NCBI GenBank assembly: GCA_964016885.1
Contig: OZ024743.1
Location: 90,148,001-90,212,000 of the forward strand
DNA length: 64,000 bases
Direction: 5' to 3'
From: Eledone cirrhosa
Lineage: Eukaryota
The notes beneath the pieces were generated by a model. It had not been told where the DNA came from, ran no database searches, and saw only the letters and a list, made by a program, of their open reading frames with translations. Of the stretch, positions 3,001 to 60,889 are shown piece by piece. The stretch's first letter is position 1. Every line of letters starts with the position of its first letter. The position numbers and the translations under genes were made by a program.

Positions 3001-6000
3001 CCTTACAATTGCCAGCTAAACACTCTAACCACTCCACCCTTCACACCACTTATGACCTTACAATTGCCAGCCAAACCTCTAACCACTCCACCCTTCACAC
3101 CACTCATGACCTTACAATTGCCAGCAAAACACTCTAACCACTCCACCCTTCACACCACTCATGACCTTACAATTGCCAGCTAAACACTCTAACCACTCCA
3201 CCCTTCACACCACTTATGACCTTACGATTGCCAGCTAAACACTCTAACCACTCCACCCTTCACACCACACATGACCTTACAATTGCCAGCCAAACACTCT
3301 AACCACTCCACCCTTCACACCACTTATGACCTTACAATTGCCAGCCAAACCTCTAACCACTCCACCCTTCACACCACTCATGACCTTACAATTGCCAGCA
3401 AAACACTCTAACCACTCCACCCTTCACACCACTCATGACCTTACAATTGCCAGCTAAACACTCTAACCACTCCACCCTTCACACCACTTATGACCTTACA
3501 ATTGCCAGCCAAACCTCTAACCACTCCACCCTTCACACCACTCATGACCTTACAATTGCCAGCAAAACACTCTAACCACTCCACCCTTCACACCACTCAT
3601 GACCTTACAATTGCCAGCTAAACACTCTAACCACTCAATCCTTCACACCACTTATGACCTTACAATTGCCAGCTAAACACTCTAACCACTCCACCCTTCA
3701 CACCACTCATGACCTTACAATTGCCAGCTAAACACTCTAACCACTCCACCCTTCACACCACTTATGACCTTACAATTGCCAGCCAAACCTCTAACCACTC
3801 CACCCTTCACACCACTCATGACCTTACAATTGCCAGCCAAACACTCTAACCACTCCACCCTTCACACCACTCATGACCTTACAATTGCCAGCCAAACACT
3901 CTAACCACTCCACCCTTCACACCACTTATGACCTTACAATTGCCAGCCAAACCTCTAACCACTCCACCCTTCACACCACTCATGACCTTACAATTGCCAG
4001 CAAAACACTCTAACAACTCCACCCTTCACACCACACATGACCTTACAATTGCCAGCCAAACACTCTAACCACTCCACCCTTCACACCACTTATGACCTTA
4101 CAATTGCCAGCCAAACCTCTAACCACTCCACCCTTCACACCACTCATGACCTTACAATTGCCAGCAAAACACTCTAACCACTCCACCCTTCACACCACTC
4201 ATGACCTTACAATTGCCAGCTAAACACTCTAACCACTCCACCCTTCACACCACTTATGACCTTACAATTGCCAGCCAAACCTCTAACCACTCCACCCTTC
4301 ACACAACTCATGACCTTACAATTGCCAGCCAAACACTCTAACCACTCCACCCTTCACACCACTTATGACCTTACAATTGCCAGCCAAACACTCTAACCAC
4401 TCCACCCTTCACACCACTTATGACCTTACAATTGCCAGCTAAACACTCTAACCACTCCACCCTTCACACCACTTATGACCTTACAATTGCCAGCCAAACA
4501 CTCTAACCACTCCACCCTTCACATCACTCATGACTTTACAATTGCCAGCCAAGCACTCTAACCACTCCACCCTTCACACCACTTATGACCTTACAATTGC
4601 CAGCCAAACACTCTAACCACTCCACCCTTCACATCACTCATGACCTTACAATTGCCAGCCAAACACTCTAACCACTCCACCCTTCACACCACTGATGACC
4701 TTACAATTGCAGGCTAAACACTCTAACCACTCCACCCTTCACACCACTTATGACCTTAAAATTGCCAGCTAAACACTCTAACCACTCCACCCTTCACATC
4801 ACTCATGACCTTACAATTGCCAGCCAAACACTCTAACCACTCCACCCTTCACACCACTTATGACCTTACAATTGCCAGCTAAACACTCTAACCACTCCAC
4901 CCTTCACACCACTCATGACCTTACAATTGCCAGCTAAACACTCTAACCACTCCACCCTTCACACCACTTATGACCTTACAATTGCCAGCTAAACACTCTA
5001 ACCACTCCACCCTTCACACCACTTATGACCTTACAATTGCCAGCTAAACACTCTAACCACTCCACCCTTCACACCACTTATGACCTTACAATTGCCAGCC
5101 AAACACTCTAACCACTCCACCCTTCACATCACTCATGACCTTACAATTGTCAGCCAAACACTCTAACCACTCCACCCTTCACACCACTCATGACCTTACA
5201 ATTGCCAGCTAAACACTCTAACCCCTCCACCCTTCACACCACTTATGACATTACAATTGCCAGCTAAACACTCTAACCACTCCACCCTTCACACCACTCA
5301 TGACCTTACAATTGCCAGCTAAACACTCTAACCATTCCACCCTTCACACCACTCATGACCTTACAATTGCCAGCCAAACACTCTAACCACTCCACCCTTC
5401 ACATCACTCATGACCTTACAATTGTCAGCCAAACACTCTAACCACTCCACTCTTCACACCACTCATGACCTTACAATTGCCAGCCAAACAATCTAACCAC
5501 TCTACCCTTCACACCACTTATGACCTTACAATTGCCAGACAAACACTCTAACCACTCCACCCTTCACACCACTCATGACCTTACAATTGCCAGCCAAACA
5601 ATCTAACCACTCTACCCTTCACACCACTTATGACCTTACAATTGCCAGCCAAACACTCTAACCACTCCACCCTTCACACCACTCATGACCTTACAATTGC
5701 CAGCTAAACACTCTAACCACTCCACCCTTCACACCACTCATGACCTTACAATTGCCAGCTAAACACTCTAACCACTCCACTCTTCACACCACTCATGACC
5801 TTACAATTGCCAGCTAAACACTCTAACCACTCCACTCTTCACACCACTCATGACCTTACAATTGCCAGCCAAACACTCTAACCACTCCACCCTTCACACC
5901 ACTCATGACCTTACAATTGCCAGCCAAACACTCTAACCACTCCACCCTTCACACCACTAATGACCTTACAATTGCCAGCTAAACACTCTAACCACTCCAC

Positions 6001-8706
6001 CCTTCACACCACTTATGACCTTACAATTGCCAGCCAAACCTCTAACCACTCCACCCTTCACACCACTTATGACCTTACAATTGCCAGCTAAACACTCTAA
6101 CCACTTCACCCTTCACACCACTTATGACCTTACAATTGCCAGCCAAACACTCTAACCACTCCACCATTCACACCACTTATGACCTTACAATTGCCAGCTA
6201 AACACTCTAACCACTTCACCCTTCACACCACTTATGACCTTACAATTGCCAGCCAAACACTCTAACCACTCCACCATTCACACAACTTATGACCTTACAA
6301 TTGCCAGCTAAACACTCTAACCACTTCACCCTTCACACCACTCATGACCTTACAATTGCCAGCTAAACACTCTAACCATTGCACCCTTCACACCACTCAT
6401 GACCTTACAATTGCCAGCCAAACCTCTAACCACTCCACCCTTTACACCACTCATGACCTTACAATTGCCAGCTAAACACTCTAACCACTTCACCCTTCAC
6501 ACCACTCATGACCATACAATTGCCAGCCAAACCTCTAACCACTCCACCCTTCACACCACTCATTACCTTACAATTGCCAGCTAAACACTCTAACCATTCC
6601 ACCCTTCACACCACTCATGACCTTACAATTGCCAGCCAAACACTCTAACCACTCCACCCTTCACACCACTTATGACCTTACAATTGCCAGCCAAACCTCT
6701 AACCACTCCACCCTTTACACCACTCATGACCTTACAATTGCCAGCTAAACACTCTAACCACTCCACCCTTCACACCACTTATGACCTTACAATTGCCAGC
6801 TAAACACTCTAACCATTCCACCCTTCACACCACTTATGACCTTACAATTGCCAGCTAAACACTCTAACCACTCCACCCTTCACACCACTTATGACCTTAC
6901 AATTGCCAGCTAAACACTCTAACCACTCCATCCTTCACACCACTTATGATCTTACAATTGCCAGCTAAACACTCTAACCACTCTAGCCTTCACACCACTC
7001 ATGACCTTACAATTGCCAGCCAAACACTCTAACCACTCCATCCTTCACACCACTTATGACCTTACAATTGCAGGCTAAACACTCTAACCACTCCACCCTT
7101 CAGACCACTTATGACCTTACAATTGCCAGCTAAACACTCTAACCACTCCACCCTTCACACCACTTATGACCTTACAATTGCCAGCCAAACACTCTAACCA
7201 CTCCACCCTTCACACCACTTATGACCTTAAAATTGCCAGCTAAACAATCTAACCACTCCACCCTTCACACCACTCATGACCTTACAATTGCCAGCTAAAC
7301 ACTCTAACCACTCCACCCTTCACACCACTCATGACCTTACAATTGCCAGCTAAACACTCTAACCACTCCACTCTTCACACCACTCATGACCTTACAATTG
7401 CCAGCTAAACACTCTAACCACTCCACTCTTCACACCACTCATGACCTTACAATTGCCAGCCAAACACTCTAACCACTCCACCCTTCACACCACTTATGAC
7501 CTGACAATTGCCAGCCAAACACTCTAACCACTCCACCCTTCACACCACTCATGACCTGACAATTGCCAGCCAAACACTCTAACCACTCCACCCTTCACAC
7601 CACTCATGACCTTACAATTGCCAGCTAAACACTCTAACCACTCCACCCTTCACACCACTTATGACCTTACAATTGCCAGCCAAACACTCTAACCACTCCA
7701 CCCTTCACACCACTTATGACCTTACAATTGCAGGCTAAACACTCTAACCACTCCACCCTTCACACCACTCATGACCTTACAATTGCCAGCTAAACACTCT
7801 AACCACTCCACCCTTCACACCACTTATGACCTTACAATTGCCAGCTAAACACTCTAACCACTCCACCCTTCACACCACTTATGACCTTACAATTGCCAGC
7901 TAAACACTCTAACCACTCCACCCTTCACACCACTTATGACCTTACAATTGCCAGCTAAACACTCTAACCACTCCTCCCTTCACACCACTTATGACCTGAC
8001 AATTGCCAGCCAAACACTCTAACCCCTCCACCCTTCACACCACTTATGACCTTACAATTGCCAGCTAAACACTCTAACCACTCTACCCTTCACACCACTT
8101 ATGACCTTACAATTGCCAGCTAAACACTCTAACCACTCCACCCTTCACACCACTCATGACCTTACAATTGCCAGCTAAACACTCTAACCACTCCACCCTT
8201 CACACCACTCATGACCTTACAATTGCCAGCCAAACCTCTAACCACTCCACCCTTCACACCACTCATGACCTTACAATTGCCAGCTAAACACTCTAACCAC
8301 TCCACTCTTCACACCACTCATGACCTTACAATTGCCAGCCAAACACTCTAACCACTCCACTCTTCACACCACTCATGACCTTACAATTGCCAGCTAAACA
8401 CTCTAACCACTCCACCCTTCACACCACTCATGACCTTACAATTGCAGGCTAAACACTCTAACCACTCCACCCTTCACACCACTTATGACCTGACAATTGC
8501 CAGCCAAACACTCTAACCACTCCACCCTTCACACCACTTATGACCTTACAATTGCCAGCTAAACACTCTAACCACTCCACCTTTCACACCACTCATGACC
8601 TTACAATTGCCAGCCAAACACTCTAGCCACTCCACCCTTCACACCACTTATGACCTTACAATTGCCAGCCAAACACTCTAACCACTCTACCCTTCACACC
8701 ACTTAT
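1..8706. repeat. 55-bp minisatellite, ~158 tandem units (GCCAGCYAAACACTCTAACCACTCCACCCTTCACACCACTYATGACCTTACAATT), runs off the 5' window edge
   Basis: Direct 55-nt periodicity with recurrent SNP and 1-nt deletion variants. Confidence 0.98.
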
Positions 8707-8799
8707 GGTTTATGGTTTGTTATTTACTTAAAAGATCCATCAACCATCTTCCCAATGGAGAACAACCATTTCTTACAATCCCTGCGATACACAATGTCT

Positions 8800-11700
8800 T
8801 CTTGTCTTTCTGTCAATCAGTCAGTCTGTCTGTCTGTCTTTCAGTCTGTCTATCTTCCTGTCTATCAGCTTGTCAGACTGTCTTTCAGTCTGTCTCTCTC
8901 TCTATCTTCCTGTCTCTCTCTCTTAGTCAATCTGTCTATTTGCCTTCCTTTCTTTCTATCCATCACTCTCTCTATCTGTCTGTCAGTCTGTCAGTCTGTA
9001 TGTTATTCTTTCTATCTGTCAGTCTCTCTGTTTGGCAGTATCTCAGTCTCTCAGTCTCTCAGTCTCTCAGTCTGTCCATCTGTCAGTCTCTCAGTCTCTC
9101 AGTCTCTCAGTCTCTCAGTCTCTCTGTTTCTCAGTCTGTCTGTCTCTCAGTCTCTCAGTCTGTCCATCTGTCTGTCTCTCAGTCTCTCTGTCTCTCTGTC
9201 TCTCCGTCTCTCAGTCTCTCAGTCTCTCTGTCTCTCTGTCTCTCTGTCTCTCAATCTCTTAGTCTGTCAGTCTGTCCATCTGTCAGTCTCTCTGTCTCTC
9301 TGTCTCTCAGTCTCTCTGTCTCTCTGTCTCTCAATCTCTCAGTCTCTCAGTCTCTCAGTCTCTCTGTTTCTCAATCTCTCAGTCTCTCAGTCTCTCAGTC
9401 TGTCAGTCTGTCCATCTGTCAGTCTCTCAGTCTCGCCATCTCTCAGTCTCTCCGTCTCTCAGTCTCTCTGTCTCTCTGACTCTCTGTCTCTCAATCTCTC
9501 AGTCTGTCAGTCTGTCCATCTGTCAGTCTCTCTGTCTCTCTGTCTCTCTGTCTCTCTGTCACACAATCTCTCAGTCTCTCTGTCTCTCAATCTCTCCGTC
9601 TCTCTGTCTCTCTGTCTCTCAATCTCTCAGTCTCTCAGTCTCTCAATCTCTCAGTTTCTCAGTCTCTCAATCTCTCAGTCTCTCAGTCTGTCCATCTGTC
9701 AGTCTCTCAGTCTCTCCGTCTCTCAGTCTCTCAGTCTCTCAGTCTCTCTGTCTCTCAATCTCTCAGTCTGTCAGTCTGTCCATCTGTCAGTCTCTCTGTC
9801 TCTCAGTCTCTCAGTCTCTCTGTCTCTCTATCTCTCTGTCTCTCAATCTCTCAGTCTCTCAGTCTCTCTGTCTCTCAATCTCTCAGTCTCTCAGTCTCTC
9901 AGTCTCTCAGTCTCTCAGTCTGTCAGTCTGTCCATCTGTCAGTCTCTCAGTCTCTCCGTCTCTCAGTCTCTCAGTCTCTCAGTCTCTCAGTCTCTCTGTC
10001 TCTCAATCTCTCAGTCTCTCAGTCTCTCAGTCTCTCAGTCTCTCAATCTCTCTGTCTCTCTGTCTCTCTGTCTCTCAATCTCTCAGTCTGTCAGTCTGTC
10101 CATCTGTCAGTCTCTCTGTCTCTCAGTCTCTCAGTCTCTCTGTCTCTCTGTCTCTCTGTCTCTCAATCTCTCAGTCTCTCAGTCTCTCTGTCTCTCTGTC
10201 TCTCAATCTCTCAGTCTCTCAGTCTGTCAGTCTGTCCATCTGTCAGTCTCTCTGTCTCTGTCTCTGTCTCTCCGTCTCTCAGTCTCTCAGTCTCTCTGTC
10301 TCTCTGTCTCTCTGTCTCTCAATCTCTCAGTCTGTCAGTCTGTCCATCTGTCAGTCTCTCTGTCTCTCTGTCTCTCTGTCTCTCAATCTCTTAGTCTCTC
10401 TGTCTCTCAATCTCTCCGTCTTTCTGTCTCTCTGTCTCTCAATCTCTCAGTCTCTCAGCCTCTCAGTCTCTCAATCTCTCAGTTTCTCAGTCTCTCAGTG
10501 TCTCAGTCTCTCAGTCTGTCCATCTGTCAGTCTCTCAGTCTCTCCGTCTCTCAGTCTCTCAGTCTCTCAGTCTCTCTGTCTCTCAATCTCTCAGTCTGTC
10601 AGCCTGTCCATCTGTCAGTCTCTCTGTCTCTCAGTCTCTCAGTCTCTCTGTCTCTCTGTCTCTCTGTCTCTCAATCTCTCAGTCTCTCAGTCTCTCACTC
10701 TCTCTGTCTCTCTGTCTCTCAATCTCTCAGTCTCTCTGTCTCTCAGTCTCTCAGTCTGTCAGTCTGTCCATCTGTCAGTCTCTCAGTCTCTCCGTCTCTC
10801 TGTCTCTCAGTCTCTCAGTCTCTCAGTCTCTCTGTCTCTCTGTCTCTCAATCTCTCAGTCTCTCAGTCTCTCAGTCTCTCAGTCTGTCAGTCTGTCCATC
10901 TGTCAGTCTCTCAGTCTCTCAGTCTCTCCGTCTCTCAGTCTCTCAGTCTCTCTGTCTCTCTGTCTCTCTGTCTCTCAATCTCTCAGTCTGTCAGTCTGTC
11001 CATCTGTCAGTCTCTCTGTCTCTCAGTCTCTCTGTCTCTCTGTCTCTCTGTCTCTCAATCTCTCAGTCTCTCAGTCTCTCTGTCTCTCTGTCTCTCAATC
11101 TCTCAGTCTCTCAGTCTCTCAGTCTCTCAGTCTCTCCGTCTCTCAGTCTCTCAGTCTCTCTGTCTCTCTGTCTCTCAATCTTTCAGTCTGTCAGTCTGTC
11201 CATCTGTCAGTCTCTCTGTCTCTCTGTCTCTCTGTCTCTCTGTCTCTCAATCTCTCAGTCTCTCTGTCTCTCAATCTCTCCGTCTCTCTGTCTCTCTGTC
11301 TCTCAATCTCTCAGTCTCTCAGTCTCTCAGTCTCTCAATCTCTCTGTCTCTCAGTCTCTCAGTCTCTCTGTCTCTGTCTCTCTGTCCCTCTGTCCCTCTG
11401 TCTCTCGGTCTCTCAATCTCTCAGTCTCTCAGTCTCTCAGTCTCTCAGTTTCTCAGTCTCTCAGTCTCTCAGTCTCTCAGTCTCTCTGTCTCTCAATCTC
11501 TCAGTCTGTCCATCTGTCAGTCTCTCTGTCTCTCTGTCTCTCAGTCTCTCAGTCTCTCTGTCTCTGTCTCTCTGTCCCTCTGTCCCTCTGTCCCTCTGTC
11601 TCTCGGTCTCTCAGTCTCTCTGTCTCTCAGTCTCTCAGTCTCTCTGTCTCTCAGTCTCTCAGTCTCTCAGTCTCTCTGTCTCTCAGTCTGTCTGTCTGTC

Positions 11701-11941
11701 TGTCCGTCTGTCCATCTGTCCGTCTGTCTGTATATCAGTCTGTCTGTCTCTCAGTCTCTCAGTCTCTCAGTCTGTCCATCTGTCAGTCTCTCTGTCTCTC
11801 AGTCTGTCCGTCTGTCTGTCTATCAGTCTGTCTCTCTGTCAGTCTGTCCATCTGTCCGTCTGTCCATCTGTCCGTCTGTCTGTCTATAAGTCTGTCTGTC
11901 TCTCAGTCTGTCCGTCTGTCCATCTGTCCGTCTGTCTGTCT
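8800..11941. repeat. Compound TCTG/TCTCTCAG/TCTGTCCA microsatellite array upstream of Tx1 copy 1
   Basis: 4- and 8-nt pyrimidine-rich units; source of the spurious poly-SL ORFs. Confidence 0.95.
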
Positions 11942-12116
11942 GAGGATAGTAGACGTGTGTCATATCGCTCTGTGATTTGGATTTTTACCTGCTATTTTTG
12001 TGAGTGGAATTTTTTGAATTCTTTTGTATAATTAACTGTAACCCCTAGTCTGGGACTCTAGACGTCGGGTAAATATATTTTCACCCCTTTTGGGGTGAAA
12101 AATAAATATTTCAGAA

Positions 12117-13871
12117 ATGTTTATCGATATCGTTGATAACGATATCGTCGAAAACGATATCGCCATATTGGAAGCGAACGCCACGCCGACCAAAAAAACA
12201 AGCGGGAAAGAGGGAACAACAGTTCAAACTGTTGAACAACCCCTCCTCTCCAATGAAAAAAAGAATTTCAATTCAAATGAAAAAATTAATTTTCAAGAGA
12301 AAAATAACACCACAAATAAGGAAACCAACAACATTACAACAACAAACAAAGACAAAATTTCTTTTGCCCAAACACTCAGGAGAGCCACGGAATACAAAGC
12401 CATTGACATCACGAACGCCAAGGAAAATTTGCTAGAGGCTAGAAAATACGTATCTTTTGGGGAGGATGGTTCTTTTACGATCAACTCCCCAGAAGAAGTG
12501 CGTGAACAGATTTACAAGAATACCGTAAGCTACAGAACCATAACCAACGAAACGAGAAAGCCAGCGCAATTGACCGAAAGTCAAATCGAGCTGGTTCTGA
12601 AAGAAATTAAAAATGACATACTCTTTATTCAAAGAGGAAAGCTGTATGCCAGCATTATGGTCCGAATGAAGGACGAAATGCTGGCTCAGAAATATTCGGT
12701 GGCACCTATAGTGTCACCACAATACACCTTCTTCCCCACATATAAAGGAAGAAGAACACAAAGGATAAGAATGTGGAGCCCTACGCCAGAAATTAACATC
12801 TGGTCCGTCCTAACAGGATTTACCGACCTAGATAAGGACATACTAATTTCAGCAGGGGAGTCCACCAGTGGACTGTTCGGAGGGAAAAGTCTGGAGGTTC
12901 TCTTACAGATGACACCTGAGAGAATCTCCGGAATACCCGACCGAGTGCTACTGGATGGGCGAACCTACATAAATATCACAGTGGAAGGCAGGAGACCCTC
13001 ATGTTACCACTGCGCTGGCAGAGGTCACCTGAGGACGGCCTGCCCTCTACTAACAACTAAAAAATCACTGCTACAAACACCACAACAACAACAAAAACAA
13101 CCAGCACCACCATCACAAAAACAACAAAATACACTACCATCTCCACCAGAACAACAAAAACCAACAACACCACCACCACAACAACAACAACAACAACAAC
13201 ATCAACAACAGCTCAAGAAAACAACCCAAAACACGGTCCCACCCAGCCCCACCCCACAGAACACAAATACAAAAACAGTTCATACACAACCCGGAGATAT
13301 ACCCCTCCCCTCCAATACGGAAGAGGAGCTCATATCGTCGGAAGACGAGGGGGCTCCCTTCCAAAAAGTGAAAAGAAAAAAACGTACACACACCACAACA
13401 ACAAAAATAACCCCACCTGACAACACAACACAGACAATAAAACGCAAACTCACTCAACAACAACAAGCAAAAACAAACACAACACAAAAACTCTACACAT
13501 ACATAAACAAAAACAATGAAAACCTAACTTTAAAAATAGAAACCAACCCTTCGATACAAACCGAAGGGCCGATTTTCGTAACGGCAATGGGGCTCCCTAA
13601 CCTGAAAATGGTGAAAATCCCACTTGACATTTTTAAAACTTTAAAAGACATGTACCCTGAGGACGTGGGCCCACCCTGCACCAGGCCACTCAACCGCGTC
13701 CTCCTGAAAGGTTTTCCCCTCCCCTCCTCAAACACCCACACAACTCCAAAGATCCCAACCCCTCCACACACCAATACCCCCACACCACCACAAACCACCA
13801 CCCCACCCATCAACCCCGCCACCAGCCCCATGGAAACTGAGCGACCCGAACCCCGGGACGCAGAGAGGTAA
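12117..13871 (+). CDS. Tx1-like ORF1 nucleic-acid-binding protein, 584 aa
   Basis: CCHC knuckle CYHCAGRGHLRTAC; Q/T/P-rich C-terminus; lies 23 nt upstream of ORF2. Confidence 0.9.
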   Translation: MFIDIVDNDIVENDIAILEANATPTKKTSGKEGTTVQTVEQPLLSNEKKNFNSNEKINFQEKNNTTNKETNNITTTNKDKISFAQTLRRATEYKAIDITNAKENLLEARKYVSFGEDGSFTINSPEEVREQIYKNTVSYRTITNETRKPAQLTESQIELVLKEIKNDILFIQRGKLYASIMVRMKDEMLAQKYSVAPIVSPQYTFFPTYKGRRTQRIRMWSPTPEINIWSVLTGFTDLDKDILISAGESTSGLFGGKSLEVLLQMTPERISGIPDRVLLDGRTYINITVEGRRPSCYHCAGRGHLRTACPLLTTKKSLLQTPQQQQKQPAPPSQKQQNTLPSPPEQQKPTTPPPQQQQQQQHQQQLKKTTQNTVPPSPTPQNTNTKTVHTQPGDIPLPSNTEEELISSEDEGAPFQKVKRKKRTHTTTTKITPPDNTTQTIKRKLTQQQQAKTNTTQKLYTYINKNNENLTLKIETNPSIQTEGPIFVTAMGLPNLKMVKIPLDIFKTLKDMYPEDVGPPCTRPLNRVLLKGFPLPSSNTHTTPKIPTPPHTNTPTPPQTTTPPINPATSPMETERPEPRDAER

Positions 13872-13894
13872 GTGCCTCTTTCTTTGCCACCAAC

Positions 13895-16800
13895 ATGGCT
13901 GTCTTAAGAGTGGGTTGTCTAAATGCGCGTGGCCTGGGCTCACCTTGGAAGCAAGCTAAACTTCTAAGTGACCTCAGGTCACAATGTGTAAATGTGATGG
14001 TTATTTGCGAGGCCCGGATCAGCAGCATGCGACAGCTAACCCCCACCTTTGATGACTTTGAGATGCACGCATCTCTCTGTCAGCCCGGAGGTGGGGGTGG
14101 GGTTGTCGTTCTGCTGCAAAAACATCTGGGTCTCGCTACACGGACGGTACACTTGGACCCGGAGGGTCGACTCGTGGTTCTGGACCTTGGCAATGGTGAA
14201 GGCGAAGCTTTTAGGCTTGTCGCCGTATACGCCCCTTTTGGGGCAATGCGGTCGGACTTCTTCCATCGTCTGGAGACTTTTCTAGGGACGTCCCACTCCT
14301 TGCTTTTAGTGGGGGACTGGAATGGTATCCTAGATGCACGTTGGGACTATGTAGGGGCATGTCCCGATAGAGGGGGGTGTAACAGCCTTAAGGGGTTAAT
14401 CGGCCGATTCGACCTGGCCGATAGATACCGACTAGATTTTCCGACTGTACCAACCTGGACCTGGTCAAATAACAGTGGTCAATCTAGATCGTACCTAGAT
14501 AGGTTCTTAGTTAGAATTAAGGATAGGGACTTTTTAAGTTGTCCAGAAATGCTCATGGTGGGCTATTCAGACCACAAGTTAGTGACCTGCGTAGTCCACC
14601 TTGATAGAACGCATAGGCAGGGGCCCGGTTACTGGAAGCTCAACTTGTCCTTACCGGCAAGTAGAGCTTACAGGGACCAGATTAGAACCTTAGTTAAGGA
14701 GCAGTTGACGGGCGCCATCGTCAACAACAGGTGGTGGGGCTCTCTAAAAAGAGAGATTAGAGTAGTTTCAATAGGAGTTAGTAAGGAGTTAGCCTCAGAT
14801 AGAAATAGGAAGGAAAGGGAGTTGGTAGTTAATGTTGAAGAGGCAATGAGAAGCGGCAACGTGGCCAGAGTGCAAGCGTCGAGAACGGTCTTGAACCAGT
14901 TCTTCGACGCGAAACACGAAGGCTGCGTTGTCCGAAGCAAAATACGTGCTCTGGGAAACGAGGGGACCAAAGCTGTTAGCTGGGCCCGCGTGACAGAAGC
15001 GAAAAGTGGGATTAAATCCACTATCCGGTCTTTGCGAGACCAGGATGGACGGCTGATCCTTGAACCTAAGCAAATGTGCGAGGCCTTTCAAAGGCACTTT
15101 GCCCAATTGTTCGGGAGGGGCGGGGAGCCGGTTGGAGATGTGGATTTCGGTCCATACCTCGACGGCCTGCCGCGTCTTTCAGACGGGGAGGCAAGGTCCT
15201 GCGACGGGCCGATCTCAGCTGCTGAAATAGGGGACGTGCTGAGCCTATGCGGCAAACGCAAATCTCCAGGACTCGATGGTCTGCCCTAAGAAACTATATA
15301 TTAATATGCCGGACTTGTTCCCCGATCTCCTCGAGGCGGTCTACTGCAACTGGCAACAGAACGGGAGAATTCCCTGTTCTGTGACCAAGGGCGTAGTCTC
15401 GCTAGTGAGGAAGGACGAGAACAAGGGGGATGACATTAGTAATTTTAGGCCCATAACTCTGCTAAATGCAGAGTTAAAGATTTTGGCGAAGGTGTTAGCG
15501 AAGAGGTTGGCGCTTGTCGTGGGGGGCCTGGTGGGAGATGCGCAGACATGCGCTATCCCGTCCAGGTCCATCCACGACAACCTCCACCTCATGCGATACA
15601 TCATAGAGAGGGTTGGGAACGAACCCGGCTTTGCTGGGGCCCTGATAAATTTAGATCAGTCTAAAGCGTTCGATAGGGTGGACCATGGTTACCTGGATGC
15701 GGTGCTAGCGGCGGCTGGGTTCGGACCCGTTTTCAGGGGCTGGATCACTGCCATGCACAGCAGCCGCATCTGCTCTAGAATCAAGGTGAACGGCTACCTT
15801 TCGGAGCCGTTCGAAATCACCCGCTCCATCCGACAGGGGTGCCCTCTCTCCTCCCTTCTGTATGTGTTGACTCTCGAGCCATTACTGCGGAAGTTGGAGT
15901 TGTTGCAGGGCATTCCTTTGGAACCGGGATTGCGCAAAGCGGTGTCGGCCTACGCCGATGACGTAACAGTAATGGTGTCGACCGCCTCGGAAATCGAGGC
16001 AATCGGCACCTTACTAGAGGAGTACGAAAGGTTGACAGGGGCTAAGCTGAACCGGGACAAGTCAGTCGCTTTGCAACTCGGCGAGTGGAGGGGCAAAGCG
16101 ATGTCGTGAGACGGTATCGTCGGACGGTGGACGGAGGGCCCGGTGAAGTTGCTTGGGGTCTGGTTCGGACCGGACCTCCAGGTGGAGAAAAACTGGGGTG
16201 AGGTGACGAATAGGGTGTTTGCACTGACCCAGAAGTGGGCCGAGTGCAAACTATCCCTAAAAGGTCGGGCGGAGGTGGCGAACGCTTACGTAGCGTCCGT
16301 CATCTATTACCGCTTGACTGTCGTGCCTTGCCCGGGTGAGATCCTCGCCAAAATGGAGCGCGCCCTCTTTTATTTCCTTTGGAAGAAGAGGTCTCCTCTA
16401 GTGAGGAGATCCATCTGCTGTCAACACCCTTTGAAAGGAGGGCTGGGGATGCCGTGGCTAAAAATGCGTAAACACGCATTGAGGCTAAGGCACCTCCACG
16501 TATTCCTCACCGGTCAACCGGTGTGGGCCCCGTTTGTGAGGCGAGCCTTCCCGAGGCTCGTCTCGCTCACCGAGCTGCAGTCCTGGGTGAAGCAAAGACC
16601 GAAAAAACTGGGCGACTGGCACACCGAGTGTGCCCAGGCGCTCACGGCTCTCTGGCAGGCGGACCCGGCTATCGACGGAAACTCCACCTCGTCATTCTAT
16701 AGAGGGCTGGTGGTTAGCGGGTGCGACGACGCCCTCGGAGAAGCACTAGGCATGGAGGAGTTCGAACTGGCCAGTCTATTCGGTAGGACTTTCGGCCCGG

Positions 16801-17333
16801 GACCTATGGACAACTTCCAGAAGTCCTTGGCCTGGCAGTGCTACCGAGGGGCTCTGCCCGTTCGGGATAAGCTCTACAGACACGGGCGCCCGGGTAGGGA
16901 CCCCTCGAAAAAGATCTGTCCCAGATGCGTGCGCGACGAGGAAACCGTCGCGCACGCATTGGTGCACTGCCCGGGCGTTGCCGATCTGTGGGGCTATGTT
17001 GAACAACTGCTGTCACGGGTGGGACCAATTAGGTTGACCACCGAGTCCATTGTAACGATCAAGCCGCCTCCCCCCTTCAGAAATGAAGGAGAGGCGGTAT
17101 TCCTCTGTGTAATAGCCATGGTAAAAGAGGCTATATGGTGGACGCGTCTGAAAGGGCTGAGGTCGGACACCTTTCTCTCCGGCCAACAACTGGTCCTTTT
17201 CTTCCGATACCATTTCGGAAGAAGGATCAGGATGGAGAGAGAGGTGCTCCACTCCAGCAAGTTTTATGAAAGGTGGGTGAAAGTTGCGAGAATGGCCCGT
17301 GTGAATGGGCCTTCTCTCTACCTCAGCCTGTAG
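13895..17333 (+). pseudogene. Tx1-like ORF2 (APE endonuclease-RT-zinc finger) broken by stop + frameshift near 15288 and TGA at 16107-16109
   Basis: Versus copy 2: CCCTAAGAAACT vs CCCTACGAACT, and TGA vs TGC; motifs LNARG, GDWN, SDH, QGCPLS, YADD present. Confidence 0.92.
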
Positions 17334-17557
17334 GTGGAACAGAAAGAGGGGAGCACCCTCTCTTTGTGCTCCCGTGGAGAAGGGTCGCACACTTTTTTTC
17401 GGGGGTGTGTGTGACCCCAAAACGATCCCTCCCTATTGAGGACCTTCTTGTTATTATTTTGTTTGTTATATTTTTCTTACTCGATTTTTATGTAAACTCC
17501 CCCCACCCATGTACATGTCCCTTTCTTTTGTGCCCTAGTGGCAAATAAACAGAAATT

Positions 17558-18898
17558 AGTCTGTCCATCTGTCCGTCTGTCCATCTGTCCGTCTGTCTGT
17601 CTATCAGTCTGTCTGTCTCTCAGTCTGTCTGTCTGTCCCTCTGTCCGTCTGTCTGTCTATCAGTCTGTCCATCTGTCAGTCTGTCCATCTGTCAGTCTCT
17701 CTGTCTCTCTGTCTCTCTGTCTCTCAATCTCTCAGTCTCTCTGTCTCTCAATCTCTCCGTCTTTCTGTCTCTCTGTCTCTCAATCTCTCAGTCTCTCAGT
17801 CTCTCAGTCTCTCAATCTCTCAGTTTCTCAGTCTCTCAGTCTCTCAGTCTCTCAGTCTGTCCATCTGTCAGTCTCTCAGTCTCTCCGTCTCTCAGTCTCT
17901 CAGTCTCTATGTCTCTCAATCTCTCAGTCTGTCAGCCTGTCCATCTGTCAGTCTCTCTGTCTCTCAGTCTCTCAGTCTCTCTGTCTCTCTGTCTCTCTGT
18001 CTCTCAATCTCTCAGTCTCTCAGTCTCTCACTCTCTCTGTCTCTCTGTCTCTCAATCTCTCAGTCTCTCAGTCTCTCAGTCTGTCAGTCTGTCCATCTGT
18101 CAGTCTCTCAGTCTCTCCGTCTCTCAGTCTCTCTGTCTCTCTGTCTCTCTGTCTCTCAATCTTTCAGTCTGTCAGTCTGTCCATCTGTCAGTCTCTCTGT
18201 CTCTCTGTCTCTCTGTCTCTCTGTCTCTCAATCTCTCAGTCTCTCTGTCTCTCAATCTCTCCGTCTCTCTGTCTCTCTGTCTCTCAATCTCTCAGTCTCT
18301 CAGTCTCTCAGTCTCTCAATCTCTCTGTCTCTCAGTCTCTCTGTCTCTGTCTCTCTGTCCCTCTGTCCCTCTGTCTCTCGGTCTCTCAATCTCTCAGTCT
18401 CTCAGTCTCTCAGTCTCTCAGTTTCTCAGTCTCTCAGTCTCTCAGTCTCTCTGTCTCTCAATCTCTCAGTCTGTCCATCTGTCTGTCTCTCTGTCTCTCT
18501 GTCTCTCAGTCTCTCAGTCTCTCTGTCTCTGTCTCTCTGTCCCTCTGTCCCTCTGTCTCTCGGTCTCTCAGTCTCTCAGTCTCTCTGTCTCTCAGTCTCT
18601 CAGTCTCTCAGTCTCTCAGTCTCTCAGTCTCTCAGTCTGTCTGTCTGTCTGTCCGTCTGTCCATCTGTCCGTCTGTCTGTATATCAGTCTGTCTGTCTCT
18701 CAGTCTCTCAGTCTCTCAGTCTGTCCATCTGTCAGTCTCTCTGTCTCTCAGTCTGTCCGTCTGTCTGTCTATCAGTCTGTCTCTCTGTCAGTCTGTCCAT
18801 CTGTCCGTCTGTCCATCTGTCCGTCTGTCTGTCTATAAGTCTGTCTGTCTCTCAGTCTGTCCGTCTGTCCATCTGTCCGTCTGTCTGTCTGTCTGTCT
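17558..18898. repeat. TCTG/TCTCTCAG microsatellite spacer between the two Tx1 copies
   Basis: Same units and the same rare variants as ~10330-11941. Confidence 0.95.
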
Positions 18899-19073
18899 GA
18901 GGATAGTAGACGTGTGTCATATCGCTCTGTGATTTGGATTTTTACCTGCTATTTTTGTGAGTGGAATTTTTTGAATTCTTTTGTATAATTAACTGTAACC
19001 CCTAGTCTGGGACTCTAGACGTCGGGTAAATATATTTTCACCCCTTTTGGGGTGAAAAATAAATATTTCAGAA

Positions 19074-20834
19074 ATGTTTATCGATATCGTTGATAACGAT
19101 ATCGTCGAAAACGATATCGCCATATTGGAAGCGAACGCCACGCCGACCAAAAAAACAAGCGGGAAAGAGGGAACAACAGTTCAAACTGTTGAACAACCCC
19201 TCCTCTCCAATGAAAAAAAGAATTTCAATTCAAATGAAAAAATTAATTTTCAAGAGAAAAATAACACCACAAATAAGGAAACCAACAACATTACAACAAC
19301 AAACAAAGACAAAATTTCTTTTGCCCAAACACTCAGGAGAGCCACGGAATACAAAGCCATTGACATCACGAACGCCAAGGAAAATTTGCTAGAGGCTAGA
19401 AAATACGTATCTTTTGGGGAGGATGGTTCTTTTACGATCAACTCCCCAGAAGAAGTGCGTGAACAGATTTACAAGAATACCGTAAGCTACAGAGCCATAA
19501 CCAACGAAACGAGAAAGCCAGCGCAATTGACCGAAAGTCAAATCGAGCTGGTTCTGAAAGAAATTAAAAATGACATACTCTTTATTCAAAGAGGAAAGCT
19601 GTATGCCAGCATTATGGTCCGAATGAAGGACGAAATGCTGGCTCAGAAATATTCGGTGGCACCTATAGTGTCACCACAATACACCTTCTTCCCCACATAT
19701 AAAGGAAGAAGAACACAAAGGATAAGAATGTGGAGCCCTACGCCAGAAATTAACATCTGGTCCGTCCTAACAGGATTTACCGACCTAGATAAGGACATAC
19801 TAATTTCAGCAGGGGAGTCTACCAGTGGACTGTTCGGGGGGAAAAGTCTGGAGGTTCTCTTACAGATGACACCTGAGAGAATCTCCGGAATACCCGACCG
19901 AGTGCTACTGGATGGGCGAACCTACATAAATATCACAGTGGAAGGCAGGAGACCCTCATGTTACCACTGCGCTGGCAGAGGTCACCTGAGGACGGCCTGC
20001 CCTCTACTAACAACTAAAAAACCACTGCTACAAACACCACAACAACAACAAAAACAACCAGCACCACCATCACAAAAACAACAAAATACACTACCATCTC
20101 CACCAGAACAACAAAAACCAACAACACCACCACCACCACAACAACAACAACAACAACAACATCAACAACAGCTCAAGAAAACAACCCAAAACACGGTCCC
20201 ACCCAGCCCCACCCCACAGAACACAAATACAAAAACAGTTCATACACAACCCGGAGATATACCCCTCCCCTCCAATACGGAAGAGGAGCTCATATCGTCG
20301 GAAGACGAGGGGGCTCCCTTCCAAAAAGTGAAAAGAAAAAAACGTACACACACCACAACAACAAAAATAACCCCACCTGACAACACAACACAGACAATAA
20401 AACGCAAACTCACTCAACAACAACAAGCAAAAACAAACACAACAACACAAAAACTCTACACATACATAAACAAAAACAATGAAAACCTAACTTTAAAAAT
20501 AGAAACCAACCCTTCGATACAAACCGAAGGGCCGATTTTCGTAACGGCAATGGGGCTCCCTAACCTGAAAATGGTGAAAATCCCACTTGACATTTTTAAA
20601 ACTTTAAAAGACATGTACCCTGAGGACGTGGGCCCACCCTGCACCAGGCCACTCAACCGCGTCCTCCTGAAAGGTTTTCCCCTCCCCTCCTCAAACACCC
20701 ACACAACTCCAAAGATCCCAACCCCTCCACACACCAATACCCCCACACCACCACAAACCACCACCCCACCCATCAACCCCGCCACCAGCCCCATGGGAAC
20801 TGAGCGACCCGAACCCCGGGACGCAGAGAGGTAA
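19074..20834 (+). CDS. Tx1-like ORF1 protein, 586 aa
   Basis: CCHC zinc knuckle; near-identical to 12117-13871. Confidence 0.9.
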   Translation: MFIDIVDNDIVENDIAILEANATPTKKTSGKEGTTVQTVEQPLLSNEKKNFNSNEKINFQEKNNTTNKETNNITTTNKDKISFAQTLRRATEYKAIDITNAKENLLEARKYVSFGEDGSFTINSPEEVREQIYKNTVSYRAITNETRKPAQLTESQIELVLKEIKNDILFIQRGKLYASIMVRMKDEMLAQKYSVAPIVSPQYTFFPTYKGRRTQRIRMWSPTPEINIWSVLTGFTDLDKDILISAGESTSGLFGGKSLEVLLQMTPERISGIPDRVLLDGRTYINITVEGRRPSCYHCAGRGHLRTACPLLTTKKPLLQTPQQQQKQPAPPSQKQQNTLPSPPEQQKPTTPPPPQQQQQQQHQQQLKKTTQNTVPPSPTPQNTNTKTVHTQPGDIPLPSNTEEELISSEDEGAPFQKVKRKKRTHTTTTKITPPDNTTQTIKRKLTQQQQAKTNTTTQKLYTYINKNNENLTLKIETNPSIQTEGPIFVTAMGLPNLKMVKIPLDIFKTLKDMYPEDVGPPCTRPLNRVLLKGFPLPSSNTHTTPKIPTPPHTNTPTPPQTTTPPINPATSPMGTERPEPRDAER

Positions 20835-20857
20835 GTGCCTCTTTCTTTGCCACCAAC

Positions 20858-23800
20858 ATGGCTGTCTTAAGAGTGGGTTGTCTAAATGCGCGTGGCCTGG
20901 GCTCACCTTGGAAGCAAGCTAAACTTCTAAGTGACCTCAGGTCACAATGTGTAAATGTGATGGTTATTTGCGAGGCCCGGATCAGCAGCATGCGACAGCT
21001 AACCCCCACCTTTGATGACTTTGAGATGCACGCATCTCTCTGTCAGCCCGGAGGTGGGGGTGGGGTTGTCGTTCTGCTGCAAAAACATCTGGGTCTCGCT
21101 ACACAGACGGTACACTTGGACCCGGAGGGTCGACTCGTGGTTCTGGACCTTGGCAATGGCGAAGGCGAAGCTTTTAGGCTTGTCGCCGTATACGCCCCTT
21201 TTGGGGCAATGCGGTCGGACTTCTTCCATCGTCTGGAGACTTTTCTAGGGACGTCCCGCTCCTTGCTTTTAGTGGGGGACTGGAATGGTATCCTAGATGC
21301 ACGTTGGGACTATGTAGGGGCATGTCCCGATAGAGGGGGGTGTAACAGCCTTAAGGGGTTAATCGGCCGATTCGACCTGGCCGATAGATACCGACTAGAT
21401 TTTCCGACTGTACCAACCTGGACCTGGTCAAATAACAGTGGTCAATCTAGATCGTACCTAGATAGGTTCTTAGTTAGAATTAAGGATAGGGACTTTTTAA
21501 GTTGTCCAGAAATGCTCATGGTGGGCTATTCAGACCACAAGTTAGTGACCTGCGTAGTCCACCTTGATAGAACGCATAGGCAGGGGCCCGGTTACTGGAA
21601 GCTCAACTTGTCCTTACCGGCAAGTAGAGCTTACAGGGACCGGATTAGAACCTTAGTTAAGGAGCAGTTGACGGGCGCCATCGTCAACAACAGGTGGTGG
21701 GGCTCTCTAAAAAGAGAGATTAGAGTAGTTTCAATAGGAGTTAGTAAGGAGTTAGCCTCAGATAGAAATAGGAAGGAAAGGGAGTTGGTAGTTAATGTTG
21801 AAGAGGCAATGAGAAGCGGCAACGTGGCCAGAGTTCAAGCGTCGAGAACGGTCTTGAACCAGTTCTTCGACGCGAAACACGAAGGCTGCGTTGTCCGAAG
21901 CAAAATACGTGCTCTGGGAAACGAGGGGACCAAAGCTGTTAGCTGGGCCCGCGTGACAGAAGCGAAAAGTGGGATTAAATCCACTATCCGGTCTTTGCGA
22001 GACCAGGATGGACGGCTGATCCTTGAACCTAAGCAAATGTGCGAGGCCTTTCAAAGGCACTTTGCCCAATTGTTCGGGAGGGGCGGGGAGCCGGTTGGAG
22101 ATGTGGATTTCGGTCCATACCTCGACGGCCTGCCGCGTCTTTCGGACGGGGAGGCGAGGTCCTGCGACGGGCCGATCTCAGCTGCTGAAATAGGGGACGT
22201 GCTGAGCCTATGCGGCAAACGCAAATCTCCAGGACTCGATGGTCTGCCCTACGAACTATATATTAATATGCCGGACTTGTTCCCCGATCTCCTCGAGGCG
22301 GTCTACTGCAACTGGCAACAGAACGGGAGAATTCCCTGTTCTGTGACCAAGGGCGTAGTCTCGCTAGTGAGGAAGGACGAGAACAAGGGGGATGACATTA
22401 GTAATTTTAGGCCCATAACTCTGCTAAATGCAGAGTTAAAGATTTTGGCGAAGGTGTTAGCGAAGAGGTTGGCGCTTGTCGTGGGGGGCCTGGTGGGAGA
22501 TGCGCAGACATGCGCTATCCCGTCCAGGTCCATCCACGACAACCTCCACCTCATGCGATACATCATAGAGAGGGTTGGGAACGAACCCGGCTTTGCTGGG
22601 GCCCTGATAAATTTAGATCAGTCTAAAGCGTTCGATAGGGTGGACCATGGTTACCTGGATGCGGTGCTAGCGGCGGCTGGGTTCGGACCCGTTTTCAGGG
22701 GCTGGATCACTGCCATGCACAGCAGCCGCATCTGCTCTAGAATCAAGGTGAACGGCTACCTTTCGGAGCCGTTCGAAATCACCCGCTCCATCCGACAGGG
22801 GTGCCCTCTCTCCTCCCTTCTGTATGTATTGACTCTCGAGCCATTACTGCGGAAGTTGGAGTTGTTGCAGGGCATTCCTTTGGAACCGGGATTGCGCAAA
22901 GCGGTGTCGGCCTACGCCGATGACGTAACAGTAATGGTGTCGACCGCCTCGGAAATCGAGGCAATCGGCACCTTACTAGAGGAGTACGAAAGGTTGACAG
23001 GGGCTAAGCTGAACCGGGACAAGTCAGTCGCTTTGCAACTCGGCGAGTGGAGGGGCAAAGCGATGTCGTGCGACGGTATCGTCGGACGGTGGACGGAGGG
23101 CCCGGTGAAGTTGCTTGGGGTCTGGTTCGGACCGGACCTCCAGGTGGAGAAAAACTGGGGTGAGGTGACGAATAGGGTGTTTGCACTGACCCAGAAGTGG
23201 GCCGAGTGCAAACTATCCCTAAAAGGTCGGGCGGAGGTGGCGAACGCTTACATAGCGTCCGTCATCTATTACCGCTTGACTGTCGTGCCTTGCCCGGGTG
23301 AGATCCTCGCCAAAATGGAGCGCGCCCTCTTTTATTTCCTTTGGAAGAAGAGGTCTCCTCTAGTGAGGAGATCCATCTGCTGTCAACACCCTTTGAAAGG
23401 AGGGCTGGGGATGCCGTGGCTAAAAATGCGTAAACACGCATTGAGGCTAAGGCACCTCCACGTATTCCTCACCGGTCAACCGGTGTGGGCCCCGTTTGTG
23501 AGGCGAGCCTTCCCGAGGCTCGTCTCGCTCACCGAGCTGCAGTCCTGGGTGAAGCAAAGACCGAGAAAACTGGGCGACTGGCACACCGAGTGTGCCCAGG
23601 CGCTCACGGCTCTCTGGCAGGCGAACCCGGCTATCGACGGAGACTCCACCTCGTCATTCTATAGAGGGCTGGTGGTTAGCGGGTGCGACGACGCCCTCGG
23701 AGAAGCCCTAGGCATGGAGGAGGACGAACTGGCCAGTCTATTCGGTAGGACTTTCGGCCCGGGACCTATGGACAACTTCCAGAAGTCCTTGGCCTGGCAG

Positions 23801-24295
23801 TGCTACCGAGGGGCTCTGCCCGTTCGGGATAAGCTCTACAGACACGGGCGCCCGGGTAGGGACCCCTCGAAAAAGATCTGTCCCAGATGCGTGCGCGACG
23901 AGGAAACCGTCGCGCACGCATTGGTGCACTGCCCGGGCGTTGCCGATCTGTGGGGCTATGTTGAACAACTGCTGTCACGGGTGGGACCAATTAGGTTGAC
24001 CACCGAGTCCATTGTAACGATCAAGCCGCCTCCCCCCTTCAAAAATGAAGGAGAGGCGGTCTTCCTCTGTGTAATAGCCATGGTAAAAGAGGCTATATGG
24101 TGGACGCGTCTGAAAGGGCTGAGGTCGGACACCTTTCTCTCCGGCCAACAACTGGTCCTTTTCTTCCGATACCATTTCGGAAGAAGGATCAGGATGGAGA
24201 GAGAGGTGCTCCACTCCAGCCAGTTTTATGAAAGGTGGGTGAAAGTTGCGAGAATGGCCCGTGTGAATGGGCCTTCTCTCTACCTCAGCCTGTAG
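20858..24295 (+). CDS. Tx1-like ORF2: APE endonuclease + reverse transcriptase + C-terminal CCHC finger, 1145 aa
   Basis: LNARG, VYAP, GDWN, YLDRF, SDHK (APE); GPGYWKLN; KSPGLDGLP, FRPITLLN, LDQSKAFDRV, QGCPLS, YADD (RT); CPRC...HALVHC. Confidence 0.96.
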   Translation: MAVLRVGCLNARGLGSPWKQAKLLSDLRSQCVNVMVICEARISSMRQLTPTFDDFEMHASLCQPGGGGGVVVLLQKHLGLATQTVHLDPEGRLVVLDLGNGEGEAFRLVAVYAPFGAMRSDFFHRLETFLGTSRSLLLVGDWNGILDARWDYVGACPDRGGCNSLKGLIGRFDLADRYRLDFPTVPTWTWSNNSGQSRSYLDRFLVRIKDRDFLSCPEMLMVGYSDHKLVTCVVHLDRTHRQGPGYWKLNLSLPASRAYRDRIRTLVKEQLTGAIVNNRWWGSLKREIRVVSIGVSKELASDRNRKERELVVNVEEAMRSGNVARVQASRTVLNQFFDAKHEGCVVRSKIRALGNEGTKAVSWARVTEAKSGIKSTIRSLRDQDGRLILEPKQMCEAFQRHFAQLFGRGGEPVGDVDFGPYLDGLPRLSDGEARSCDGPISAAEIGDVLSLCGKRKSPGLDGLPYELYINMPDLFPDLLEAVYCNWQQNGRIPCSVTKGVVSLVRKDENKGDDISNFRPITLLNAELKILAKVLAKRLALVVGGLVGDAQTCAIPSRSIHDNLHLMRYIIERVGNEPGFAGALINLDQSKAFDRVDHGYLDAVLAAAGFGPVFRGWITAMHSSRICSRIKVNGYLSEPFEITRSIRQGCPLSSLLYVLTLEPLLRKLELLQGIPLEPGLRKAVSAYADDVTVMVSTASEIEAIGTLLEEYERLTGAKLNRDKSVALQLGEWRGKAMSCDGIVGRWTEGPVKLLGVWFGPDLQVEKNWGEVTNRVFALTQKWAECKLSLKGRAEVANAYIASVIYYRLTVVPCPGEILAKMERALFYFLWKKRSPLVRRSICCQHPLKGGLGMPWLKMRKHALRLRHLHVFLTGQPVWAPFVRRAFPRLVSLTELQSWVKQRPRKLGDWHTECAQALTALWQANPAIDGDSTSSFYRGLVVSGCDDALGEALGMEEDELASLFGRTFGPGPMDNFQKSLAWQCYRGALPVRDKLYRHGRPGRDPSKKICPRCVRDEETVAHALVHCPGVADLWGYVEQLLSRVGPIRLTTESIVTIKPPPPFKNEGEAVFLCVIAMVKEAIWWTRLKGLRSDTFLSGQQLVLFFRYHFGRRIRMEREVLHSSQFYERWVKVARMARVNGPSLYLSL

Positions 24296-24518
24296 GTGGA
24301 ACAGAAAGGAGGGAGCACCCTCTCTTTGTGCTCCCGTGGAGAAGGGTCGCACACTTTTTTCGGGGTTGTGTGTGACCCCAAAACGATCCCTCCCTATTGA
24401 GGATCTTCTTGTTATTATTTTGTTTGTTATATTTTTCTTACTCGATTTTTATGTAAACTCCCCCCACCCATGTACATGTCCCTTTCTTTTGTGCCCTAGT
24501 GGCAAATAAACAGAAATT

Positions 24519-24695
24519 TGTCTATCAGTCTGTCCGTCTCTCAGTCTGTCCGTCTGTCTGTCTCTCAGTCTGTCCGTCTGTCCATCTGTCCATCTGTCTG
24601 TCTATCAGTCTGTCCGTCTCTCAGTCTGTCCGTCTGTCTGTCTATCAGTCTGTCCGTCTCTGTCTGTCCGTCTGTCTGTCTATCAGTCTGTCTGT
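24519..24695. repeat. TCTG/TCCG microsatellite downstream of Tx1 copy 2
   Basis: Direct repeat reading. Confidence 0.9.
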
Positions 24696-59816: not shown

Positions 59817-60805
59817 ATTTCTTTATCCACCACAAAGGGTTCACATTAAGAAAACATAAGGATGGGACAGAGCGAAAACATAGAGTATGTGTATGTGTAT
59901 GTGTGTTGGTGTGTGGGTTTTGCATGTAAATATGTTTAAATAATAGTAAAAAGAAAGGTAACAATAATAAATTTTAACAGTGAGAATTCCTCAATAGCAA
60001 GATGTTTGAGGGCTGCTCATAGAAAAAAAATCCCTAAAACCATGGGTGCCCTGATCTCTAGGGCAAGTGCTCTGACTCAGTTGTCCTCTTCCAATCCACA
60101 CGTATACACTCAGTGTGGGTTCATTCACTCTGGCCATGCCCACCTCTCTCACCCACCTTTCAACAAACTGCTTCGAATGCAGCACTTCCCTCTCTTTCTT
60201 GATTTTCCTCTTCAAGTGAAATCTGAAAAAGTTAATCAGGGCTTCACTGAAGAGGAAAGTGCTTGTCTTCAACCCTTTCAGACATGTCCACCATACGACC
60301 TCTTTCACCATAGCCACCAGACAGATAAAAACAGCCTGCCCTTCTTGACTAAAGGAAGGCTGCAGGCAATCTTCACAATGGACTCAGCTGATAGCTAGAT
60401 TCATCCTACATGTGACAGCAAGTGATTGACATAAACCCACAAGTCAGCAATGCTCAGACACTCAAAGATTGCATGGAAGATGGTTTTGTTGCCCTGTGCA
60501 CATTTCAGACAGACCTAGCTGATGGCACTTCCATGCCTGAAGAGTTTATCCCAAACTGGCAAAGCTCCCCAGTAGCACTGCCAGACAAGCGATTTCTGGA
60601 AATTATCCATGGACTCTGGACCAAAAGTCCTCCCAAAAAGAGTGGCTAGTTGATTTTCGTCAATGTCCAGAAATTTCCCTAAGAATGTTGTCACTTTTTT
60701 CTGCCACTAACCCTTTATACAATGCCAAGCACTCCCTCTCGGTCACATCTTGACCCAGGACTACAGCTCTAACAAGGAGATGAGCTGCGGAAACATGTGT
60801 CTAGA
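59817..60805 (-). mobile_element. Old 5'-truncated Tx1 relative (ORF2 C-terminus + 3' UTR)
   Basis: AMVKEVVWWTCLKGLK...EREVLHSKQFVERWV...MARVN aligns to the C-terminus of ORF2 at 20858-24295; similar 3' end CCCTTTGTGGTGGATAAAGAAAT. Confidence 0.88.
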
Positions 60806-60889
60806 GAACAACAATAATGAAGAGAAAGGCAGATATAATGTCAACTTAAAAACACAGGATTATTATTATTATTATTATTATTCTAATCT

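Follow-up and report, generated by a model that had tools for sequence, protein, structure and literature searches.

A young L1-group LINE family inserted in (GTCT)n microsatellites of Eledone cirrhosa, with a likely origin from (ATCT)n-targeting relatives

The present analysis concerns a pair of long interspersed nuclear elements (LINEs) in Eledone cirrhosa and the family to which they belong, referred to here as the GTCT family after the microsatellite in which its copies lie. The window, i.e., the whole stretch of 64,000 nucleotides that was analysed (assembly GCA_964016885.1, contig OZ024743.1, positions 90,148,001 to 90,212,000), holds two full-length copies on the plus strand, between which 29 substitutions and 4 small indels were counted (Table 1). 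Copy 1 is 5614 bp long (11942-17555) and copy 2 is 5618 bp long (18899-24516), each being followed by a terminal TT. A preliminary description of this DNA had recognized two near-identical elements of approximately 5.6 kb on one strand of a TCTG-type repeat, which was confirmed, with GTCT-type repeat lying upstream of, between, and downstream of the copies. The intact 1145-aa protein with an APE endonuclease and a reverse transcriptase (RT) that it had assigned to copy 2 was also confirmed, since the open reading frame (ORF) is open and the Pfam domains Exo_endo_phos, RVT_1, and zf-RVT were found in ORF2. Its head-to-tail array is correct as to the single orientation, but the copies do not abut, being 1,343 bp apart; similarly, both 5' junctions lie in the repeat, but copy 2 has two extra GTCT units after GTCCGTCTGTCTGTCT. 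In its body and its last ~300 bp, the spacer at 17556-18898 is a copy of the array that precedes copy 1, aligned with 1301 matches, 28 mismatches, and gaps of up to 216 bp. The 101-bp stretch found on both sides of copy 1 may be a long target duplication, although such a call is ambiguous within repetitive sequence.

Table 1. Features of the two LINE copies and their surroundings (positions in the window; TRF, Tandem Repeats Finder; UTR, untranslated region).
Feature	Position	Strand	Basis
Upstream target array, GTCT-derived complex microsatellite (3.1 kb)	8803..11941	.	TRF period-4 array and sequence
101-bp stretch, repeated directly after copy 1 at 17558-17658 (98/101 identical)	11841..11941	+	Sequence reading
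Copy 1, full-length LINE	11942..17557	+	
Copy 1 ORF1, 584 aa, open	12117..13871	+	
Copy 1 ORF2, disrupted by stops at 15289 and 16109 and a 1-nt insertion at 15291	13895..17333	+	
Repeat spacer, 1,343 bp, GTCT-type	17556..18898	.	
Copy 2, full-length LINE, ORF1 and ORF2 both intact	18899..24518	+	
Copy 2 ORF1, 586 aa, one CCHC knuckle (weak Pfam match), RRM/ZCCHC3-like features (lead only)	19074..20834	+	
Copy 2 ORF2, 1145 aa: APE endonuclease, RT (YADD), C-terminal zinc finger	20858..24295	+	
APE endonuclease domain of copy 2	20858..21580	+	Structure model
Codons T189-S199, aligned to the L1 betaB6-betaB5 hairpin (T192-S202)	21422..21454	+	
Copy 2 3' UTR, end AATAAA-CAGAAATT, without a poly(A) tail	24296..24518	+	Sequence; 99 family ends
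Downstream GTCT-type repeat (~175 bp), unique DNA beyond	24517..24692	.	

Regarding the proteins, the ORF2 product of copy 2 was compared with solved structures and matched human L1 ORF2p (E 2.7e-50, residues 7-858) and R2 (2e-18), a coarse comparison in that L1 and R2 were the sole full proteins matched in the PDB. The APE domain was modelled with a predicted local distance difference test score (pLDDT) of 94.6, and its best fold match was the LINE-1 endonuclease (template modelling score 0.82-0.84). An N-terminal APE, an RT, and a C-terminal zinc finger in ORF2, together with a separate upstream ORF1, the absence of long terminal repeats (LTRs), and the presence of 5'-truncated copies, were all observed here and are the characteristics of an autonomous non-LTR element of the L1 group. 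In ORF1, the zf-CCHC match was below the cut-off (E 0.027-0.067); look-alikes in the Atlas, which are leads only, were zf-CCHC (score 0.90-0.92) and, for the N-terminal half, clusters with ZCCHC3-type RNA-binding domains (0.89). ORF1 of Tx1 elements carries an RNA recognition motif-type domain and a CCHC knuckle, unlike that of vertebrate L1. Homologue searches returned no named Tx1 protein, and membership of Tx1 is considered likely from architecture and behavior rather than from a tree. Clusters of relatives sharing ~40% identity contain 732, 435, and 352 members and represent large families in other genomes.

The family was counted genome-wide by its exact 5' 25-mer and exact 3' 27-mer, which gave counts of at least 207 for the 3' end and 65 for the 5' end. 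As an unbiased set of flanks, all exact 3' ends located on C1-C4, the four largest contigs, were read (99 ends). The element continued into [GA]TCT, in a single phase and on a single strand, at 96 of these 99 ends, and the junction was TTGTCT at 66. Two or more GTCT were present within 40 nt after 86 ends and three or more after 76, while two or more AGAC followed 1 end; flanks were GTCT-rich at 93 ends and ATCT-rich at 2. The 5' ends were preceded by TCT in 61/61 cases and by GTCT in 58/61 (first sample). In 20 arbitrary 10-kb stretches (200 kb), three or more GTCT in 40 nt occurred at 0.13% of positions, and a comparison of this background with the 76/99 ends argues that the GTCT flanks are not due to chance. 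(GTCT)3+ covered 0.03% of the same 200 kb, (AT)n 4.7%, and (GT)n 1.4%. Non-canonical 8-mers were shared by both flanks of one copy (median 10 versus 1 across loci; 54 loci, p=3e-16), and since these locus-specific variants are common to both sides, the repeat belongs to the target site and not to the tail of the element. The target of the GTCT family is (GTCT)n genome-wide. According to Kojima, a family is target-specific when a single sequence type makes up more than 20% of its flanks (PMC4494074), and two or more GTCT were found within 40 nt of 86 of the 99 ends here. The TCTG-repeat-specific family suggested in the preliminary description (GTCT being the same repeat as TCTG) is therefore present throughout the genome, with 3' flanks that are in phase and not random. 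The longer preferred site that it had proposed, GTCTGTCT^ATCAG, was not supported; ATCAG fits the window locus only, is not conserved in the genome-wide position table, and was rejected as part of the target.

The insertion of individual copies is documented by a small number of readable target-site duplications (TSDs), one of 12 bp for a truncated copy inserted where the 5' end of an older copy meets its flank, one of ~17 bp where a 98-bp copy occupies a solitary CTATCTGT site, and further ones of 17-21 bp. A 106-bp 'duplication' on contig C12 was rejected as a TSD because it is one unit of a local satellite. Several observations weigh against the reading of a strictly targeted, target-duplicating family: 10% of GTCT-family junctions start with ATCT, and the specificity is therefore not strict; for most solo copies, TSDs called automatically were ambiguous; and several copies that are short or truncated lack a duplication and are preceded by unique sequence. 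ORF2 is intact in 48 and both ORFs in 42 of 98 full-length copies, which were chosen from the best matches and are, hence, biased towards young copies. These frames suggest that the family, a young and repeat-specific LINE of the L1 group, is probably still active.

A search with the APE domain revealed family B, the ORF2 of which is 89% identical to that of the GTCT family and open in 8/8 copies picked for open frames. By pattern count, exact 3' ends numbered 1,932 in B, 5,752 in C, 1,386 in D, and 722 in E, the other sister families. In the first 30 (B), 30 (C), 30 (D), and 20 (E) 3' ends on C1, ATCT outnumbered GTCT at 22/30, 29/30, 24/30, and 20/20 ends, respectively, and the reverse was found at 1, 0, 1, and 0; some B and D ends sit in (AT)n. 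Pooled, 95/110 ends of families B-E were ATCT-rich and 2/110 GTCT-rich, against 93 GTCT-rich and 2 ATCT-rich ends in the GTCT family (p about 1e-49, for copies that are not independent). Position +4, the first purine, is G in 90% of GTCT-family junctions versus 0/110 in B-E. ATCT was also found on both sides of 6 full-length family B copies. In a quick APE tree, GTCT copies were nested inside ATCT lineages (SH-aLRT 99 and 89), and therefore the GTCT target was likely derived from the ATCT target by a one-base change of specificity, as judged from these sequences; the misplacement of three short fragments in the same tree counts against this order of events. ATCT families stack in common repeat tracts, and at several 3' ends a few units of repeat separate the element from the 5' end of a different family.

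A comparison of 92 GTCT-family with 21 ATCT-family APE domains identified six nearly fixed differences in the GTCT family, N100, E104, S120, S191, N193, and H235. N193 was present in 91/92 GTCT-family domains and 0/21 ATCT-family domains, and S191 and N193 both fall in the stretch aligned to the L1 hairpin between T192 and S202, which probes the minor groove and in which changes alter nicking (PMC1950540; PMC1919474). On balance, we favor the endonuclease as the predicted main cause of the target switch, with the hairpin residues N193 and S191 as the first candidates. Q196 and P17 were rejected as determinants because they are common to ATCT families too. Some points do not sit well with this prediction: 23/240 APE positions and 29/340 RT positions are changed relative to family B, without enrichment in APE; the ATCT families differ among themselves in the hairpin and yet share their target; one GTCT-family copy has T191/H193; and the ATCT-family sample is small, with one family represented by a single copy. 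When a foreign hairpin was grafted onto L1 as a whole, its specificity was not transferred (PMC1950540).

In summary, this young L1-group family occupies (GTCT)n on one strand and in one phase, likely because its predicted endonuclease nicks the AGAC strand, and it likely arose from (ATCT)n-targeting relatives. APE would nick the AGAC strand of (GTCT)n and thereby prime reverse transcription, and the nick would lie at or next to C^TGTCT because the terminal AGAAAT(T) of the element is followed by bases that vary with the local form of the target. Insertion would duplicate the target; the few duplications that could be read span about 12-21 bp. With the target duplicated, the site would be regenerated and new copies would land just upstream of old ones, and unequal exchange may subsequently expand the arrays.

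Alternatively, the target may be set by the RNA, in which repeat sequence acquired by read-through at the 3' (and 5') end would have to pair with the nicked target; a lineage landing in GTCT would then stay there, and the endonuclease would cut both repeats. We consider this explanation possible, although doubtful. The lack of a poly(A) tail, element ends that run directly into the repeat, and the 66/99 TTGTCT junctions are consistent with it, as is the RNA-target pairing described for R1 and SART1 (PMC2718515; PMC7265360). However, 15/99 junctions follow a local target variant (TAGTCT, TTATCT, CTATCT), and since the junction bases follow the target, the RNA repeat is often not copied. APE divergence that does not exceed that of RT favors the RNA, whereas the six APE positions nearly fixed between the GTCT and ATCT groups favor the enzyme, as do the endonuclease swaps between TRAS1 and SART1 that moved the target (cited in PMC4494074 and PMC1919474). 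The terminal ACAGA of the GTCT family and ATAGA of family E are each antisense to their own target unit, a one-base covariation that would suit a role for the RNA but is maybe due to chance. These termini could also make a short hairpin with read-through RNA, again perhaps fortuitously.

Two or more full-length copies were present at 16/72 loci examined (47/103 copies), a frequency that is inflated because arrays were sought deliberately. The 36 spacers measured between array neighbors ranged from 6 to 1,673 bp, and no fixed-length target duplication of the type found in R1 arrays separated the copies. Short spacers join unrelated copies, with those of 7-23 bp behaving as regenerated targets, and longer ones reproduce almost exactly the flank that precedes the first element in the array (1149/1149, 122/122, 168/169, 110/111, 72/73, and 56/57 identical positions). 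The exact 1,149-bp duplication belongs to a nine-copy array (C3:358729418-358781089), which also holds two copies with a common 78-bp deletion; what precedes the copied stretch is a short run of repeat and unique DNA rather than another element. Adjacent copies were more alike in their 5' than in their 3' parts in 9/27 pairs versus 15/150 random pairs. Beside a resident copy, new cDNA or later repair may often use the 5' part of that copy as a template, and this would yield 5'-alike neighbors and duplications of 57 to 1,149 bp; priming upstream of the resident copy would be followed by a template jump or by gene conversion from its 5' junction. L1 chimeras reportedly formed in cell culture in work by Gilbert in 2005. 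Copying from the resident element is made less secure by the 4 adjacent pairs that were 3'-alike (as were 41 random pairs), by the non-independence of the 27 adjacent pairs (3 of the 9 5'-alike pairs are from one array), and by random pairs also often being mosaic. One array holds two copies with 0 substitutions between them, and near-identical neighbors show that unequal exchange or assembly error occurs as well.

Regarding the pair in the window, copies 1 and 2 form a sister pair (support 0.975) in the tree built from 56 full-length copies and share two variants that were found in 0/101 other copies. They differ at 15/4,366 sites up to position 4600 and at 13/1,018 beyond (p=8e-4, best of many breakpoints), and the divergence of the 3' kilobase, which falls at sites that vary within the family, is as high as that between unrelated copies. 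The two 3' junctions diverge immediately beyond the element, already at its first flanking base (AGTCTGTCC versus TGTCTATCA). The separate 3' junctions support two insertions, but the sister relationship and the two private variants indicate that these were not simply independent. Two priming events, a shared 5' ~4 kb, and a spacer reshaped by later repeat recombination fit best. It is unlikely, in our view, that the assembly placed two alleles of a single insertion next to each other, or that a crossover within the repeat duplicated one segment, to give the pair and some of the arrays. Such an origin would account for the shared private variants of the sisters, the near-identical upstream 300 bp, the allelic appearance of 0.5% divergence with repeat-length differences, and the other array with two copies lacking substitutions, but a breakpoint inside the repeat is not expected to give 3' junctions that differ at the first base or a 3' kilobase diverged like that of unrelated copies, and many arrays combine clearly independent copies. 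Copy 1 has ~21 departures from the common letters of the family, many of them to A, versus ~8 in copy 2, and this excess is possibly assembly error. No RNA run was listed among the public runs with a match, and contigs from four public runs contained many relatives at 85-95%, none of which spanned the element or its junctions.

That the repeat is the element's own microsatellite tail, as in CR1, L2, and RTE and as is common at the 3' ends of LINEs (PMC6007223), or a passive refuge, as proposed for Drosophila Waldo-A/B (PMC3812793), without any targeting, is highly improbable and was rejected for the tail, given the repeat on the 5' side too (61/61), locus-specific variants matching across both flanks at 54 loci, fixed strand and phase, and the far commoner repeats that are not used. 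Returning to targeted insertion, a broader version can be put forward tentatively, in which more than 9,000 copies home to microsatellites, one lineage was recently re-aimed from (ATCT)n to (GTCT)n via one or two hairpin residues (N193, S191), and copy-back arrays duplicate up to 1.15 kb of the target per insertion.

Elsewhere in the window, a 55-bp satellite (1-8707, ~159 copies, 95% identity) stops ~95 bp short of the GTCT array, and an old 5'-truncated relative with 45-60% amino acid identity lies on the minus strand at 59818-60808, its 3' end having no adjoining tetranucleotide repeat.

Waldo, Mino, Dong, SART1, and TRAS1 belong to the R1 and R4 clades, whereas the ORF2 described here is nearest to L1 among solved structures. 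The GTCT family resembles these elements in its repeat-specific insertion, with Waldo (ACAY), Mino (AC), and Dong (TAA) targeting microsatellites (PMC3812793) and SART1/TRAS1 occupying telomeric repeats (PMC7265360), and the endonuclease and RNA-target pairing have both been discussed as determinants in that group. Microsatellite-specific Tx1 families include teleost Kibi in (TC)n and Koshi in (TTC)n as well as crocodilian families in (TTCC)n and (TTTC)n (PMC4494074). The GTCT family is likewise an APE-RT LINE of the L1 group specific for a microsatellite, 4-bp units included among the known targets, but its target is (GTCT)n and that of its sisters (ATCT)n. Sister families whose targets differ by a single base were not found in the available parts of PMC4494074.

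R1 arrays in 28S rDNA and double-insertion dimers of transposable elements have also been described (PMC2718515; PMC5932611). As in R1, the target would be regenerated by duplication, new copies would arise upstream of old ones, and unequal exchange would expand the array; unlike the fixed 14-bp or 33-nt duplications in R1 spacers, those observed here span 6 to 1,673 bp, with flank copies of up to 1,149 bp and 5'-alike neighbors. In Octopus vulgaris, which has a genome of similar size and similarly young L1-Tx1 families, 13 recently active families with 421 insertions were reported, and 80 families are listed in the supplement (PMC13282606). The GTCT family may be among the annotated octopus L1-Tx1 families, the available parts of those annotations holding no target analysis (PMC13282606; PMC8967140). 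We found no report of GTCT- or ATCT-targeting LINEs in the literature searched; Repbase and Dfam, which were outside the reach of this search, may record such families. An array of target-specific LINE copies is itself ordinary, and what is new here is the paired families with a one-base difference in target.

How APE-type LINE endonucleases read sequence is understood only in part. The target switch would provide a natural pair of near-identical enzymes for studying site choice, and with intact ORF2s that are 89% identical and repeats that are one base apart, a small number of residue swaps could separate control by the enzyme from control by the RNA. If true, re-aiming through the hairpin would represent a natural, near-minimal code for the specificity of LINE endonucleases, and the GTCT family is a candidate safe-site insertion tool. 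The arrays illustrate the conversion of microsatellites into retrotransposon satellites by site-specific LINEs.

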